Sequence record: OQ718158.1
Source of the DNA: Escherichia phage vB_Ec-M-J
Direction: 5' to 3' (one strand)
Length of the DNA stretch: 64,000 nt
Under the pieces are notes generated by a model. That model was not told the origin of the DNA. It saw only the letters and a list, made by a program, of their open reading frames with translations, and made no database searches. The translations under genes and the position numbers were made by a program. Positions 56,395 to 61,548 of this stretch are shown piece after piece (positions within the stretch are counted from its first letter, which is position 1; each line of letters starts with the position of its first letter).

Positions 56395-56715
56395 ATGTCG
56401 TACTCAATGTTCTTGGATGATATTCGTGATTATCAAAAATATTATCCTGACCAAGAGATGGTATTGTGTCGTGACTACGAAAGTGCATGTGAATACGTAA
56501 TCAAAAATGGAATTCCAGCATTTGTCTCATTTGACCATGACTTGGGTGACTTGAGTACAGATGAGAAAACGGGATACACTTTTGCCAAATTTCTAATTGA
56601 TTATATGTTTGAGCATAATATTAAAGAACCATTTAAATACTATGTACATAGTAGTAATCCAGTAGGGAAAGTTAATATTGAAACTTACTTAACTAATGGA
56701 TTTAATGCACTATGA
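56395..56715 (+). CDS. hypothetical protein
   Basis: 106-aa ORF; AGGAG RBS. Confidence 0.5.
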   Translation: MSYSMFLDDIRDYQKYYPDQEMVLCRDYESACEYVIKNGIPAFVSFDHDLGDLSTDEKTGYTFAKFLIDYMFEHNIKEPFKYYVHSSNPVGKVNIETYLTNGFNAL

Positions 56716-57014
56716 TTTCAACACATATCAAGAGTCTTATTTGCACAACACTGTTAGGTATAGGTGTTCTATGGTTCAGTTCATATCATGAGAACACTAA
56801 ACGTTACAATATTCATTACAATGCAGCGACTGTAACAGGATTAGGTCAATGTAATGAAAATAAATGCTCATTTACTTATAAAACCAGTACTGGTGAAGTT
56901 CGTAATGGGTTATCAAGAGATCCAGTATCAATTGGTCAACTAGTTTACCAGGAATGCTGGGAGGAAAAGGCTCGTGGTTCAAGATGTTATGTTGAATACG
57001 AACCGAGCATGTAA
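56712..57014 (+). CDS. hypothetical exported or membrane-anchored small protein
   Basis: N-terminal hydrophobic segment LICTTLLGIGVLWFS; Cys-rich. Confidence 0.45.
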   Translation: MISTHIKSLICTTLLGIGVLWFSSYHENTKRYNIHYNAATVTGLGQCNENKCSFTYKTSTGEVRNGLSRDPVSIGQLVYQECWEEKARGSRCYVEYEPSM

Positions 57015-57075: not shown

Positions 57076-58515
57076 ATGAAAAAATATACAATTGACACAA
57101 ACGTACTACTATCTGATCCAAATGCTACCATTGCTTTTGATGGAGCAGCTATCATTCTACCGTTCACAGTACTTGAAGAATTGGATTCAATTAAAAGTCG
57201 TAATGTGGATGTTTCCCGTGATGCTCGTGTTGCAATCCGTAACATTGAAGCTATCCTTTCTGATGCATCACATGAAGAAATTAGTAGTACTGGTGTTAAT
57301 ATTGCTGATGTTCATACTAATATGAGTCCTGAAAGCAAATTGTTTGTTATTACAAGCGAAGAAGCTGAAGCACTAATTCGTACTGCTGGTAACGAAGAGA
57401 AAGTTCAAACTCTTCTAAAAAGCACAGTACCAGATGATAAAATCATTTTAGTAGCATTAGCAACTGATTCAGTACTGGTTACCCGTGATATCAATATGCG
57501 TATCAAGGCTCTAAGCTACGGGGTGGAAGTTCAAGATTATCGTCATGATATCGTGATTGGTGATAGTGATTTGATTCACATTGGTCAACATCACCTTGAC
57601 CTACATTTCTGGGATGTGTATAGTAATCTGACTGATGTATCTATTCAGTCTGAACAAGTTGGTCGTCGTTTGTACCACTACATTCCAAAAAGCTTGATTG
57701 AACATATCATGCCACAAAATATTTGCATCGGTGATTACCTATATGATAATGCTGATGTTCTATTTGTGTACGAAGGTCAATCTGCAATTGAAGAAGATGA
57801 TGGTACTTTAACACCAGAAGATATTCTTGTATTCCAAGATATTGGACAATCTGTTGCTCTACGTGCTAAAGTGTGGGATATTAAGGCTAAGAATATTCAA
57901 CAAGCACTAGCAATCAACAGTATCCTAGATCCTGATGTTCATCTAACAGTACTGTTAGGTTCAGCAGGTACTGGTAAAACACTAATCACCATTGCAACTG
58001 CACTAGAGTTAGTTCTAGAGAAGAAAAAATACGACCGTATCATCTTCTCCAAAACACAAGATTCCCAATTCGAAGACATTGGTTTCTTGCCTGGTTCTGA
58101 AGCAGAGAAAGTGATTCCTTTCTGTGGTGCGGCAATCGATGCGTTGGAATTCCTACACAAAGATGATGCTAACCCACAAGGCAGTATCGAAGAAATCATG
58201 AAACGCAATGTTATCCAATTCAAAGCACTAAACTTCGTTCGTGGTCGTTCTTTCACAAATACTATCCTAGTAGTTGATGAATTCCAGAACATCACACCTG
58301 CTCAGGCAAAAACAATCTTGACTCGTGCAGGGATGAACTGTAAAGTGGTTATTATGGGCAACTTGAGCCAGATTGACTCTAAATTCATTAGTCCAGTAAA
58401 CAGCGGCCTAACTTATGTTACCGAGAAGTTCAAGAACTGGGACGGCTGTCGTGTAATCGAACTAGAAGGTGTCGTTCGTTCACCACTAGCAGAATTTGCA
58501 GAAGAAAATATGTAA
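57076..58515 (+). CDS. phoH: PhoH-like ATPase with N-terminal PIN domain
   Basis: N-terminal IDTNVLLSDPNA (PIN-like acidic pocket) and Walker A LLGSAGTGKT; 479 aa. Confidence 0.88.
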   Translation: MKKYTIDTNVLLSDPNATIAFDGAAIILPFTVLEELDSIKSRNVDVSRDARVAIRNIEAILSDASHEEISSTGVNIADVHTNMSPESKLFVITSEEAEALIRTAGNEEKVQTLLKSTVPDDKIILVALATDSVLVTRDINMRIKALSYGVEVQDYRHDIVIGDSDLIHIGQHHLDLHFWDVYSNLTDVSIQSEQVGRRLYHYIPKSLIEHIMPQNICIGDYLYDNADVLFVYEGQSAIEEDDGTLTPEDILVFQDIGQSVALRAKVWDIKAKNIQQALAINSILDPDVHLTVLLGSAGTGKTLITIATALELVLEKKKYDRIIFSKTQDSQFEDIGFLPGSEAEKVIPFCGAAIDALEFLHKDDANPQGSIEEIMKRNVIQFKALNFVRGRSFTNTILVVDEFQNITPAQAKTILTRAGMNCKVVIMGNLSQIDSKFISPVNSGLTYVTEKFKNWDGCRVIELEGVVRSPLAEFAEENM

Positions 58516-58995: not shown

Positions 58996-59553
58996 ATGTT
59001 TTTTGACCAAACATTTACGTTGTACCATGATTCAGGTAAAGTTGAGATTATTGATAATCTGTTAGAGTACATTGCGGAACATGACGGTATAGACCGTTTC
59101 CACAGTAAGATGAAATTCGATTTAGCTGAATTCAACAAAAAGAATCGTGAAACATTTTGGAAGAACCGTTTCTATTACGAAATGTATCCAGAAAAGTTCG
59201 TAGGTTATTATCTTTGTACTGAAAAAGGATTACTTGTATCTCCTGATTTACTTATGGGTGAATACATGATACTCTATAATGAGTACTGGGAACATAAGCG
59301 TAATGCTCGTGACACTGAATGGCGACACAAGCGTTCGTATATGTACAAACATAACCACTCCAGATACAAACGTCCTAAGACCCAACAAGAGCGTCGTATG
59401 GCTTGTGCAGTACTGAAGGATGAGGGGGAACCTGAAATACGTGGAAGACGTAAGATGCGTTCATTGCCATCGTATTGGGATGATATCAGAACAAGACACA
59501 GTACTGGCTGGAAATACAGTACAAAACGTAAACATCAATACAAAGGGAGCTAA
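58996..59553 (+). CDS. hypothetical protein with basic C-terminus
   Basis: AAGGAGAAA RBS; Arg/Lys-rich tail. Confidence 0.55.
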   Translation: MFFDQTFTLYHDSGKVEIIDNLLEYIAEHDGIDRFHSKMKFDLAEFNKKNRETFWKNRFYYEMYPEKFVGYYLCTEKGLLVSPDLLMGEYMILYNEYWEHKRNARDTEWRHKRSYMYKHNHSRYKRPKTQQERRMACAVLKDEGEPEIRGRRKMRSLPSYWDDIRTRHSTGWKYSTKRKHQYKGS

Positions 59554-59569
59554 TGCTCCCTAATTTTAT
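59545..59569 (+). terminator. rho-independent terminator overlapping the stop codon
   Basis: hairpin GGGAGC-taat-GCTCCC followed by TAATTTTAT. Confidence 0.55.
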
Positions 59570-59580
59570 AGGTGAACTTT

Positions 59581-59910
59581 ATGAACAAAATTGACGTTAC
59601 TGTAGTGATTGGTTATATTGAAATTGAACCGTGTGGCATTGATACCTTTATTGACACTCTTAATAAGTATCGTGCTGAATATGACGGTCACATTAGTCTT
59701 TCACCAGACAGTGGTTACGGCGGTTTTCATGGATACAATGTAATTTGGACCAGAGAAGAAACTGACGAAGAATACCATGCACGAATTGAAGCTGAATCTA
59801 AAAGACGTGAAGAAATTGAACGTCAAGAAATGAAACACTTGATGAACAAGAAATCATTAAGTACCGAAGAGAAATCTAAACTTTTAAAATACATCAAGGA
59901 TTACATGTAA
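59581..59910 (+). CDS. hypothetical protein
   Basis: ATG 59581 after GGTGA; Glu/Lys-rich C-terminus. Confidence 0.5.
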   Translation: MNKIDVTVVIGYIEIEPCGIDTFIDTLNKYRAEYDGHISLSPDSGYGGFHGYNVIWTREETDEEYHARIEAESKRREEIERQEMKHLMNKKSLSTEEKSKLLKYIKDYM

Positions 59911-60557
59911 TGAAAAATGTATCACAAGAAAAGATTCTGTACCTTGCAAAGTACAATGGTGGATTTAATATTACCAGTTGTGAATATCATGGTAACATGG
60001 CTAAAATGATTGACGAGCTACTAGAAGGTAAAATGCTCCGTTGGGAGACAAATGACCTTTGGTACGAATATGCGGGTCAACAATGGGAAAGTGACTACGA
60101 TAATGCAATTCATACGTATACAATTACTAAAAGTGGTGAAGTACGTTTGGCTATCATGCGTTGTGCTTACACTTACAAAAATTTCAAAGATGAAGAAAAG
60201 CATATTCGCCGAAATGAAGAGTTAGTACACCTAATGGGTGAAGCTGGCATTACAATGCATGACTTGTTCAATGAACCAAGATGGACTGGGAATCTGACCA
60301 AAGCAGAATACAAAGCATTGCGATACATCCAAGTACCAGAAATCAACAAACCAAAAGAATGTATTGATGATGGTGAACTAAGCCTCAAAAATGTATTTGA
60401 AAGTACCAGTACTGAAAGTATTGCTGATCTTTCAGTTCAGATGGCTATCAAAGCTATGGAACTATTCAAAACACAATATGAAGGACACAGTGCTGAAGAA
60501 GTAGAGCGTGAGTTCATTACGCGAGTACAAATTGCATTACATAAATCAAAAAAGTAG
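59910..60557 (+). CDS. hypothetical protein
   Basis: 215-aa ORF. Confidence 0.55.
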   Translation: MKNVSQEKILYLAKYNGGFNITSCEYHGNMAKMIDELLEGKMLRWETNDLWYEYAGQQWESDYDNAIHTYTITKSGEVRLAIMRCAYTYKNFKDEEKHIRRNEELVHLMGEAGITMHDLFNEPRWTGNLTKAEYKALRYIQVPEINKPKECIDDGELSLKNVFESTSTESIADLSVQMAIKAMELFKTQYEGHSAEEVEREFITRVQIALHKSKK

Positions 60558-60563
60558 GTTCAT

Positions 60564-60743
60564 ATGAAAATTTTACTTGTACTAATCGCCGTTCTTATGG
60601 TATTATCTTGTTCAGTTAGTAATGGTTCATACATTTACGTATCAGTATTTGAAGAAGCACCAACGAACTGTGTATTAACTCACACTGGTATTGTGTTAGT
60701 TAATGGTAAACCATCAATCGAGTACTTATGTATAGGTGATTAA
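60564..60743 (+). CDS. putative small lipoprotein (59 aa)
   Basis: ORF not in the ORF track; signal peptide MKILLVLIAVLMVLSC with lipobox-like LSC. Confidence 0.45.
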   Translation: MKILLVLIAVLMVLSCSVSNGSYIYVSVFEEAPTNCVLTHTGIVLVNGKPSIEYLCIGD

Positions 60744-60746
60744 ATT

Positions 60747-60980
60747 ATGAAATTTATTTCTATTGCAATTGTTTCAGCACTCATGATGTTAGTAACAGGC
60801 TGTGCATCTAAAGTTCAGGAGGCTGATGCAGAGTTCATTCGCCAGAATTTGACTAAACTTAACTACGATGGCACATTGTATGCTTGCCATGAGATGCGTC
60901 ATGGGCAAGATCTTAATCTCATGTGCAGGAAGATTGTGAATCGCAAACGTCTTAATACTGTTCCGAAGGATGCACAATGA
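60747..60980 (+). CDS. putative lipoprotein
   Basis: signal peptide with lipobox LVTGC at residues 15-19. Confidence 0.55.
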   Translation: MKFISIAIVSALMMLVTGCASKVQEADAEFIRQNLTKLNYDGTLYACHEMRHGQDLNLMCRKIVNRKRLNTVPKDAQ

Positions 60981-61147
60981 AAGAAGTAATTGGTTACAAA
61001 TGTAAAAATTGTGGCAAAGATAAGGGTAAGCATTCAGTACAAGGGATGGCTTGTCCGAATCCAGGACGTGGTAATTTCAGAGGGTTCAGTACTGAAAAGT
61101 CTTACGAACTGGATCATACCAAACCTGTAATGGGTTATAAATTATGA
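60977..61147 (+). CDS. small zinc-ribbon protein (56 aa)
   Basis: ORF not in the ORF track; CKNCG ... CPNPG; ATGA overlaps at both ends. Confidence 0.4.
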   Translation: MKEVIGYKCKNCGKDKGKHSVQGMACPNPGRGNFRGFSTEKSYELDHTKPVMGYKL

Positions 61148-61503
61148 GTGATTATGTGGCATTTCTTCATCGCTTTGGTGAAGCTCAAGAAAAACACATT
61201 ATCCGTATGCCAGCTTATGGTGAAGAAGACTGGTACAAAAGTACTATCAGTGTAGGTGCATTTCGTGACCGTGAAGCTGAATTCTTTCTGGGTAAGCAAC
61301 ATGAACGAGAGGTACTTTGCTCACTTTGGCGTTTAGATGAATGGGATAGTGAAAATTCAAGAACGGCTAAATCAATGATGACTATTGTTGGTATTGCGAA
61401 CTATCAGCACCCATATGATCTATTACCTACATTTGAACATGCTTCTTTGTTTGACTTTTACAAAGCAGTAGGGTATGATTATAAAAAGAAACGTTACATT
61501 TAA
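61144..61503 (+). CDS. hypothetical protein
   Basis: 119-aa ORF. Confidence 0.5.
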   Translation: MSDYVAFLHRFGEAQEKHIIRMPAYGEEDWYKSTISVGAFRDREAEFFLGKQHEREVLCSLWRLDEWDSENSRTAKSMMTIVGIANYQHPYDLLPTFEHASLFDFYKAVGYDYKKKRYI

Positions 61504-61548
61504 TATCAGTACTGTTATAGTGGCAGTACTTTTTAATTGGAGATTACT

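Follow-up and report, generated by a model that had tools for sequence, protein, structure and literature searches.

Two small predicted lipoprotein families of Rak2-like jumbo phages, candidates for a receptor- or entry-inactivating role in the outer membrane

Results

A compact unit with two tandem lipoprotein genes

The 64,000-nucleotide stretch of DNA analysed here (the window) comes from Escherichia phage vB_Ec-M-J (OQ718158.1) and, by its sequence, is a section of the genome of an Asteriusvirus jumbo myophage, a coliphage of the 121Q/PBECO4 group. We studied two small tandem open reading frames, ORF1 and ORF2, whose products are very probably lipoproteins, and the short ORF3 that follows them. 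ORF1 and ORF2 represent two unrelated narrow families, here called T1 and T2, and comparison of their sequences strongly supports their confinement to Rak2-like jumbo phages. Our overall best explanation, which we offer tentatively, is that both proteins would be outer-membrane lipoproteins, distinct from the spanins of the phage, that inactivate a receptor or an entry step.

Nearly all ORFs of at least 90 amino acids (aa) in the window lie on the plus strand. ORF1 to ORF4 form the 3' part of six tightly packed genes at 59581-61503, with terminator-like hairpins at both edges of the unit:

59544..59561, + strand: terminator-like hairpin from a consensus scan; it closes off the gene before the unit and forms the unit's upstream boundary
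59581..59910, + strand: 109-aa gene, first of the unit; phrog_25568, function-unknown; ATG start as used in relatives
59910..60557, + strand: 215-aa gene, without a transmembrane segment by eye; conserved left anchor of the lipoprotein slot
60564..60743, + strand: ORF1, predicted T1 lipoprotein precursor, 59 aa
60747..60980, + strand: ORF2, predicted T2 lipoprotein precursor, 77 aa
60977..61147, + strand: ORF3, predicted 56-aa CCHC zinc-knuckle mini-protein, cytoplasmic; phrog_10623
61144..61503, + strand: ORF4, 119 aa, closing the unit; phrog_9342, function-unknown
61508..61530, + strand: terminator-like hairpin from a consensus scan at the downstream edge; phage G17 has an annotated terminator at the same site

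ORF1 and ORF2 are 3 nt apart, and ATGA overlaps join ORF2 to ORF3 (60977-60980) and ORF3 to ORF4 (61144-61147). All three ORFs lie on the plus strand, and the coordinates given for them in the first-pass annotation, which had also noted the ATGA overlaps, proved exact. The locus has 97% DNA identity to Escherichia phages CMSTMSU and Turkey3 and 88% to 121Q and PBECO4, and ORF2 is identical (100%) to EcMJ_221 of vB_Ec-M-J on a contig of 378,573 bp. ORF1, ORF2 and ORF3 are real genes under purifying selection. Scans of ORF1 to ORF4 and their neighbours against Pfam, NCBIfam, PHROGs and PADLOC returned just PHROGs of unknown function or matches at the level of the signal peptide.

Lipoprotein signals of ORF1 and ORF2

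The ORF1 product begins with MKILLVLIAVLMVLSC followed by SVSNG..., with a signal peptide of residues 1-15, a VLSC lipobox, Cys16 (60609-60611) and Ser at position +2. The ORF2 product begins with MKFISIAIVSALMMLVTGC followed by ASKV..., with a signal peptide of residues 1-18, a VTGC lipobox, Cys19 (60801-60803) and Ala at +2. We applied a PROSITE PS51257-like rule that combines Lys or Arg within the first 7 residues, an uncharged hydrophobic stretch thereafter, and a lipobox [LIVMFWSTAG]2-[LIVMFYSTAGCQ]-[AGS]-C with its Cys at position 15-35. The charged start and the hydrophobic stretch were found as MK-ILLVLIAVLMVL in ORF1 and MK-FISIAIVSALMMLV in ORF2, and the lipobox as MVLSC (C16) and LVTGC (C19), respectively. 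Among the 265 first-start ORFs of at least 30 aa on the plus strand of the window, ORF1 and ORF2 are the only matches to this rule; on the non-coding strand, 4 of 299 ORFs match.

The pattern of conservation across relatives is the strongest evidence from sequence for the lipoprotein nature of both products, above the rule-based matches. All 14 full-length ORF2 homologues (the 15th is an N-terminally truncated fragment) have the lipobox Cys, and so do the distant ORF1 homologues, in spite of an unconserved hydrophobic region (h-region); the residue is kept in all full-length members of A1, A3, A4, P0021, P0023, P0026 and L027-L029. In two rows of A3, the MAFFT alignment shifts this residue by a few columns, but the Cys is plain in the sequences themselves. 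The ORF2 homologues carry about nine mutually unalignable h-regions, between an M-K start and a [LF]-x-[STAVC]-G-C end that are invariant in the full-length members. When the window is compared with slurp01 or A4, the DNA identity of ORF2 is 44-48%, roughly random, over the signal region and 76-83% over the mature region. Likewise, at a dS of 0.7-0.9, the ratio of nonsynonymous to synonymous substitution rates (dN/dS) of ORF2 falls from 0.72 in the signal to 0.12-0.15 in the mature domain.

Matches in Pfam, NCBIfam, PHROGs and the Protein Data Bank (PDB) are confined almost wholly to the signal-peptide and lipobox segments of other lipoproteins, namely Lpp/OprI, YgdI/YgdR, DUF4223, an Rz-like spanin, T5 Llp, FlgP and YecR, and they therefore indicate likeness of signals and not homology. 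Taken together, these observations bear out the two tandem small lipoproteins proposed in the first-pass annotation. It is quite improbable that the two proteins are exported without lipidation, either cleaved by signal peptidase I or held in the inner membrane by an N-terminal anchor. The VLSC of ORF1 and the STAC of an Erwinia-phage homologue are indeed non-canonical at positions -2 and -3. Yet every member of both families has the Cys precisely where the h-region ends, although the rest of the signal is freely replaced, and the depositors' LipoP call on the T1 homologue of Klebsiella phage Muenster (SpII score 10.3) also favours a lipoprotein.

Bacterial lipoproteins are processed by Lgt, LspA and Lnt, and under the '+2 rule' of the Lol pathway an Asp at +2 leads to retention in the inner membrane. 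No member of the T1 or T2 families has Asp at +2. Sorting of ORF1 and ORF2 to the outer membrane is thus expected under the Escherichia coli rule, because the residue is Ser or Ala and never Asp.

Two unrelated families

An hhalign comparison of T1 with T2 aligned the signal peptide only, and the two families are therefore not paralogues. Each has two conserved Cys residues beyond that of the lipobox. The two AlphaFold2 models are of moderate quality, with predicted local distance difference test (pLDDT) scores of 69 and 75. Sequence and profile searches of the PDB gave either nothing or matches to the signal peptide alone.

The mature part of T1 in ORF1 has 44 aa and is acidic (isoelectric point, pI, 4.6), with conserved Cys36 and Cys56; it is predicted to form a small beta sheet, a module of about 43 aa with a pLDDT of about 85 over the mature part. 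A word-indexed search with ORF1 found 4 clusters, all from Asteriusvirus. Tblastn extended the family to Escherichia phage A4, to Eneladusviruses of Erwinia, Serratia and Yersinia, to Klebsiella Alcyoneusviruses and to Munch-like Salmonella phages. All homologues have a lipobox (SSC, TAC or SGC) and the mature motif N-C...N-G...Y-x-C, and both are kept even in the distant members from A4, pEa_SNUABM_47, Muenster, Munch, L027 and L029. The Muenster homologue, CPT_Muenster_205, is named 'putative outer membrane lipoprotein' in GenBank and has 100 aa; comparison with L029 indicates a deletion that removed T2 and joined T1 to the end of a 74-aa gene lying further downstream. T1 is missing from about 22 of the 35 Asteriusvirus records.

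The mature part of T2 in ORF2 has 59 aa and is basic (pI 9.0), with a 58-aa domain predicted to form three helices (pLDDT about 70). Even distant homologues keep Y45, C47 and C60 without exception, and H48 is invariant within Asteriusvirus. The word-indexed search retrieved 15 ORF2 clusters, all from Asteriusvirus and one of them an N-terminal fragment; in the full-length members, the 58-aa mature domain is highly conserved. An exhaustive search of 1.84 billion representatives with a profile of the family added three tiny lipoprotein clusters; the rest were spurious repeat proteins. The remote members EJP2_141, Hallingskeid CDS0542, P0023 and P0026, the last two retrieved by the exhaustive search, keep VSC or SGC and the motif Y-x-C-H...L-x-L-x-C-R. 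Residues 48-52 of ORF2, HEMRH, resemble the HExxH motif of metalloproteases, a reading that we rejected, since many alleles have Thr or Ser in place of Glu49 and distant members have HEIHE.

A variable slot and an old tandem

ORF1 occupies a slot between the 215-aa gene and ORF2 (window 60557-60747) whose contents vary among phages:

T1: the window, 121Q, Turkey3, CRJP21 and L028
divergent T1: A4 and L027
28-aa ORF, a T1 shortened by deletion: ph0011
34-aa remnant, WGR-domain protein and 126-aa gene: PBECO4, slurp01 and G17; fEgEco12 has the same without the 126-aa gene
WGR fragment and tyrosyl-tRNA synthetase, then T1: the Alcyoneusvirus-like contig L029
empty: four Salmonella-propagated SD phages

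On the left of the slot, the homologues of the 215-aa gene in other genera (Muenster, Munch, EJP2 and Hallingskeid) have a longer C-terminal tail (257-286 aa). In the PBECO4-type cassette that replaces ORF1, a 34-aa vestige of the tail of the upstream gene precedes the WGR-domain protein, of 323 aa, and the 126-aa protein (L007 2575-4123; L010 2576-4038; L001 7076-8161). Its recombination junction lies inside ORF2, right at the lipobox, so that ORF2 gains a different signal peptide. In the four SD phages, which have reduced genomes of 310-326 kb, a deletion takes ORF1 together with the signal peptide of ORF2 and leaves the mature ORF2 frame intact (L009 2509-2751 and L011 2518-2676, from Salmonella phages SD-15_S21 and SD-1_S14). 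Between the window and 121Q, dS is about 0.1 for ORF1, ORF3 and ORF4 and about 0.8 for the interleaved ORF2 and 215-aa gene, a contrast between neighbours which shows that alleles have been shuffled gene by gene.

The order T1 then T2 is found in Asteriusvirus and, with an ATGA overlap, in L029, and the Eneladusvirus genes pEa47_00126 and pEa47_00127 may be a T2-like gene followed by T1, with weak homology to T2. The tandem is kept in three lineages, and each gene has also been lost singly. By this distribution of sequences, the tandem is old.

ORF3 and the neighbouring genes

ORF3 encodes a basic protein (pI 9.5) without a signal peptide and with three Cys residues, arranged as C9-x2-C12 ... 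C26-P-N-P-G. Seven distant homologues, some as little as 22% identical, have only C9, C12, H19, C26 and P27 in common with ORF3. Based on this set, ORF3 is a CCHC zinc knuckle of the form C-x2-C-x6-H-x6-C-P. The first-pass annotation was right to see a small zinc-binding protein with a CxxC...CPxxG pattern, but a classical zinc ribbon would have two CxxC/CPxC knuckles with four Cys ligands between them, and ORF3 has three Cys and an invariant His. ORF3 belongs to phrog_10623 and weakly matches the N-terminus of the 400-aa phrog_36508. The knuckle stands alone in ORF3, Hallingskeid, EJP2 and L027, is N-terminal in proteins of 267-402 aa (A4_484, Muenster_207, L027 and L029) and is C-terminal in the 169-aa Munch_154, whose N-terminal part starts with a D-x-S-x-S motif. 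What ties ORF3 to the lipoproteins is a common transcription unit and conserved synteny, with no demonstrable functional link.

Two further small elements occur nearby in relatives. One is a small domain that begins MK..(L)IAVD(T/S)SG, with the same D-x-S-x-S motif, and is possibly vWA/MIDAS-like; in EJP2 and Hallingskeid it lies beside the knuckle, and in Munch the two are fused (L015 1899-2408, which is Munch_154; L016 2651-2983; L017 4275-4610); we found no homologue of it in the window. The other is an extra gene of 67-71 aa in metagenomic relatives, beginning MKCPHCQ... and lying directly 3' of T2 (L027 3235-3450; L029 3234-3437), which from its sequence could be a second small Cys-rich metal-binding protein of the module.

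At the borders of the unit, the 109-aa length of the first gene agrees with the annotation in 121Q, Turkey3 and G17, and ORF4 is kept beside the lipoprotein genes in Asteriusvirus and Alcyoneusvirus. The syntenic region of a well-annotated relative contains genes for a head protease, a Sir2-like protein, NUDIX, PhoH, dCMP deaminase and NrdD/NrdG. The window itself encodes a 479-aa PhoH-like ATPase at 57076-58515, whose N-terminal extension is annotated as a PINc domain in one record (ph0011). In the CMSTMSU record, flagged 'UNVERIFIED', the PhoH-like gene is broken into four coding sequences and ORF3 is cut short, both of which suggest frameshifts from sequencing. A further small gene directed to the envelope lies a few kb upstream of ORF1 and ORF2, at 56712-57014; its 100-aa product has a hydrophobic N-terminal segment and matches phrog_14661, 'membrane protein' in the moron and host-takeover category (E=2.6e-38).

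As to expression, a scan for sigma-70-like promoters found sites no commoner than in shuffled sequences. The octamer TATAAATA, the core of the T4 late promoter, was absent from both strands of the window against 11.6 +/- 3.4 expected. Across the genome of the Asteriusvirus EC22.5-2, the octamer is about 5-fold rarer than expected (14 found, about 68 expected), and because the depletion is genome-wide its absence from the window does not bear on timing. Our literature search found no transcriptome paper for the genus Asteriusvirus, and the papers on Sharanji, ph0011, Muenster and Munch are silent on the genes studied here.

Discussion

Possible inactivation of a receptor or an entry step

What might two small lipoproteins accomplish for a virulent phage? 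Purely by analogy with the superinfection-exclusion lipoproteins Llp and Cor, we regard exclusion or receptor inactivation as the most plausible function of ORF1 and ORF2, ahead of action on a conserved envelope machine and of lysozyme inhibition, even though it is, taken by itself, a possibility still on the unlikely side. After export, the lipobox Cys would be acylated and the signal removed, and the destination of both lipoproteins would be the inner leaflet of the outer membrane. Within each mature domain, the other two conserved Cys residues would probably form a periplasmic disulfide that staples the beta module of T1 or the three-helix module of T2. The effect would be to inactivate a receptor, perhaps a secondary one, or an entry step, in principle as Llp and Cor do, and the benefit would be that further phage, or progeny meeting cell debris, are not wasted. 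In favour of this function are the small size and predicted outer-membrane location of these lipoproteins of a virulent phage, their probable disulfides, their dispensability in relatives, their position in or beside a variable slot and their physical likeness to T5 Llp.

Several observations weigh against exclusion or receptor blocking, the role favoured in the first-pass annotation. The mature domains of ORF1 and ORF2 gave no Llp or Cor match in the PHROG and Pfam scans, and Foldseek searches of the PDB and BFVD gave no match outside their own families, although the models used are of no more than moderate quality and the domains very small. Unlike llp and cor, ORF1 and ORF2 have no receptor-binding-protein gene beside them; their neighbours are a gene with a MazG-like tail, ORF4, dCMP deaminase, PhoH, NUDIX and NrdD. 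Furthermore, T1 and T2 are conserved, with low dN/dS, in phages of E. coli, Klebsiella, Salmonella, Erwinia, Serratia and Yersinia, and such conservation across hosts fits a conserved target better than an arms race over a strain-specific receptor.

Conserved envelope machines as a possible target

The same breadth of hosts and the strong purifying selection fit envelope effectors that act on a conserved host machine and serve host takeover, a change of cell shape or the timing of lysis, a reading to which we give perhaps one chance in a few. Candidate targets would be the lipoprotein activators of peptidoglycan synthases, Lpp/Pal tethering, the Bam, Lpt or Lol machineries, or the outer-membrane phospholipase, as with colicin-release lipoproteins. 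The retention of the T1-T2 tandem in three lineages points in this direction, as does the filamentation and bulging, ahead of lysis, of cells infected with Sharanji, a phage with T2 only (PMC11895373). The filamentation has other candidate causes, however, and no other family match was found; Pfam Lysis_col, the family of the colicin-release BRP/Kil lysis lipoproteins, gave no match at E<=1. Moreover, each gene has been lost alone in viable phages, so neither T1 nor T2 is essential.

A more specific and rather less probable variant is that T1 and T2 are an ancestral, co-transcribed pair that would act jointly, from the inner face of the outer membrane, either on a conserved envelope machine or on a universal secondary receptor of the Enterobacterales. 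As encoded in the window, T1 is acidic and T2 basic. If the pair did act jointly, phage envelope effectors would gain a new class, one with no relation to Llp, Cor or spanins.

Inhibition of a peptidoglycan hydrolase, comparable to T4 Spackle or to lipoprotein lysozyme inhibitors, is improbable. Such inhibitors would shield the infected cell from the tail lysozymes of superinfecting phages or from premature action of the phage's own lysozyme. Small, presumably disulfide-stapled periplasmic domains tethered near the wall would suit this task, and several lysozymes are encoded by the Rak2-like phage group (PMC9692438, supplement). The proposal is nevertheless purely analogical, and neither sequence nor fold shows similarity to known inhibitors.

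A dedicated spanin pair downstream in relatives

We assembled the unannotated Asteriusvirus genome EC22.5-2 (351,992 bp) and scanned it for lipoboxes. It encodes a 124-aa protein that matches phrog_1152, 'Rz-like spanin', over its full length (E=6.6e-29); this protein has a transmembrane segment at its N-terminus and a periplasmic part that is charged and looks helical. Directly after this inner-membrane spanin (i-spanin) follows, with an ATGA overlap, a lipoprotein of 102-104 aa (102 aa in EC22.5-2) with a LISGC lipobox, the outer-membrane spanin (o-spanin). In EC22.5-2 and Turkey3 alike, the distance from ORF2 downstream to the pair is about 16 kb:

EC22.5-2 141220-141899 (L020 43220-43899): i-/o-spanin pair
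Turkey3 L026 1201-1886: i-/o-spanin pair

It is present in 121Q (gp511/512) and throughout the Rak2-like group, under the names 'i-spanin' and 'o-spanin' in K64-1, 'i-spannin' in Munch and 'hypothetical protein' in many records; fEgEco12 misnames the pair 'cell division protein FtsB' and 'lytic conversion lipoprotein'. For the window phage, synteny of sequence predicts the pair about 16 kb past window position 60747, outside the window.

Because relatives have this dedicated pair and no i-spanin partner adjoins ORF1 or ORF2, we consider it nearly certain that the two are not the spanins of the phage, and we rejected that role. The window contains no homologue of the i-spanin. Sequence inspection revealed no transmembrane segment in the 215-aa protein, ORF3 or ORF4, and the 215-aa gene cannot be the i-spanin because it lacks an N-terminal one. 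Nor is there the C-terminal transmembrane segment of a unimolecular spanin such as T1 gp11, either in an ORF2 homologue (by hydropathy scan) or in ORF1 and ORF2 (by inspection). That either protein is an o-spanin or a unimolecular spanin is thus extremely improbable: both are small lipoproteins, and phrog_456, 'Rz-like spanin', has a weak match to the signal peptide of ORF2 (E=0.03) that is limited to residues 2-25, but most Asteriusviruses lack ORF1 and the SD phages have deleted the ORF2 signal. The first-pass annotation had also set spanins aside, on the grounds that no holin/endolysin pair is visible nearby. Its conclusion stands, although the absence of such a pair is not what decides the matter. 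The absence itself agrees with a window free of spanin homologues and with a syntenic stretch of a relative that has no annotated lysis gene, the rest of the window being unscanned for holins and lysozymes.

EC22.5-2 encodes two more predicted lipoproteins, at 335376-335627 and 335989-336264, both with an LTAC lipobox. The former has Asp at +2, predicting retention in the inner membrane, and a weak, signal-level match to the Cor PHROG (E=0.009). Asteriusviruses thus appear to encode at least 4-5 lipoproteins.

Significance and comparison with known systems

Jumbo phages of the Rak2/121Q group are under development for therapy, yet a function has been assigned to only a minority of their genes. 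Few phage products are known to reprogramme the cell surface, and small outer-membrane lipoproteins such as Llp, Cor and the spanins belong to them. T1 and T2 add two candidates for exclusion or inactivation of a receptor that are short and easy to clone. Should they block a receptor, they would lead towards the terminal receptor of the group and foretell interference between phages in a cocktail; otherwise they would give access to a new envelope target. The genes themselves are already deposited as hypothetical proteins, 'membrane protein' or 'putative outer membrane lipoprotein'. New here are the definition of two distinct families, their distribution and tandem ancestry, the swapping of signal peptides at the lipobox, the CCHC nature of ORF3 and the separation from the real spanin pair.

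Among known systems, ORF3 shares with CCHC zinc knuckles the C-x2-C...H...C ligands within about 18 residues and the small, basic character of the protein, whereas its spacing matches no Pfam family. Rz1-type o-spanins, such as those of the 121Q and K64-1 pairs, resemble T1 and T2 as small outer-membrane lipoproteins with periplasmic Cys residues; unlike them, T1 and T2 have no partnered i-spanin gene, and each has been lost in viable relatives.

The closest functional analogues would be Llp of T5 (PDB 8a60 chain B, 83 aa) and Cor of phi80, N15 and T1 (phrog_1119), receptor-inactivating lipoproteins of virulent or temperate coliphages with precursors of a size similar to the 59-77 aa found here. 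Llp depends on an essential periplasmic disulfide and is dispensable for phage growth. T1 and T2 likewise have their two extra conserved Cys residues, and each is dispensable in some relatives. They differ from Llp and Cor in their gene neighbourhood, in spanning several host genera and in not matching the Cor PHROG, and the match of T1 to 8a60_B (E=0.16) covers residues 1-22 alone, with no homology beyond the signal peptide. True homologues of ORF1 include CPT_Muenster_205 and the 'outer membrane lipoprotein' of K64-1, both in syntenic position and both members of the T1 family, and CPT_Muenster_205 differs from ORF1 in its length of 100 aa against 59 aa and in the fusing deletion that removed T2.

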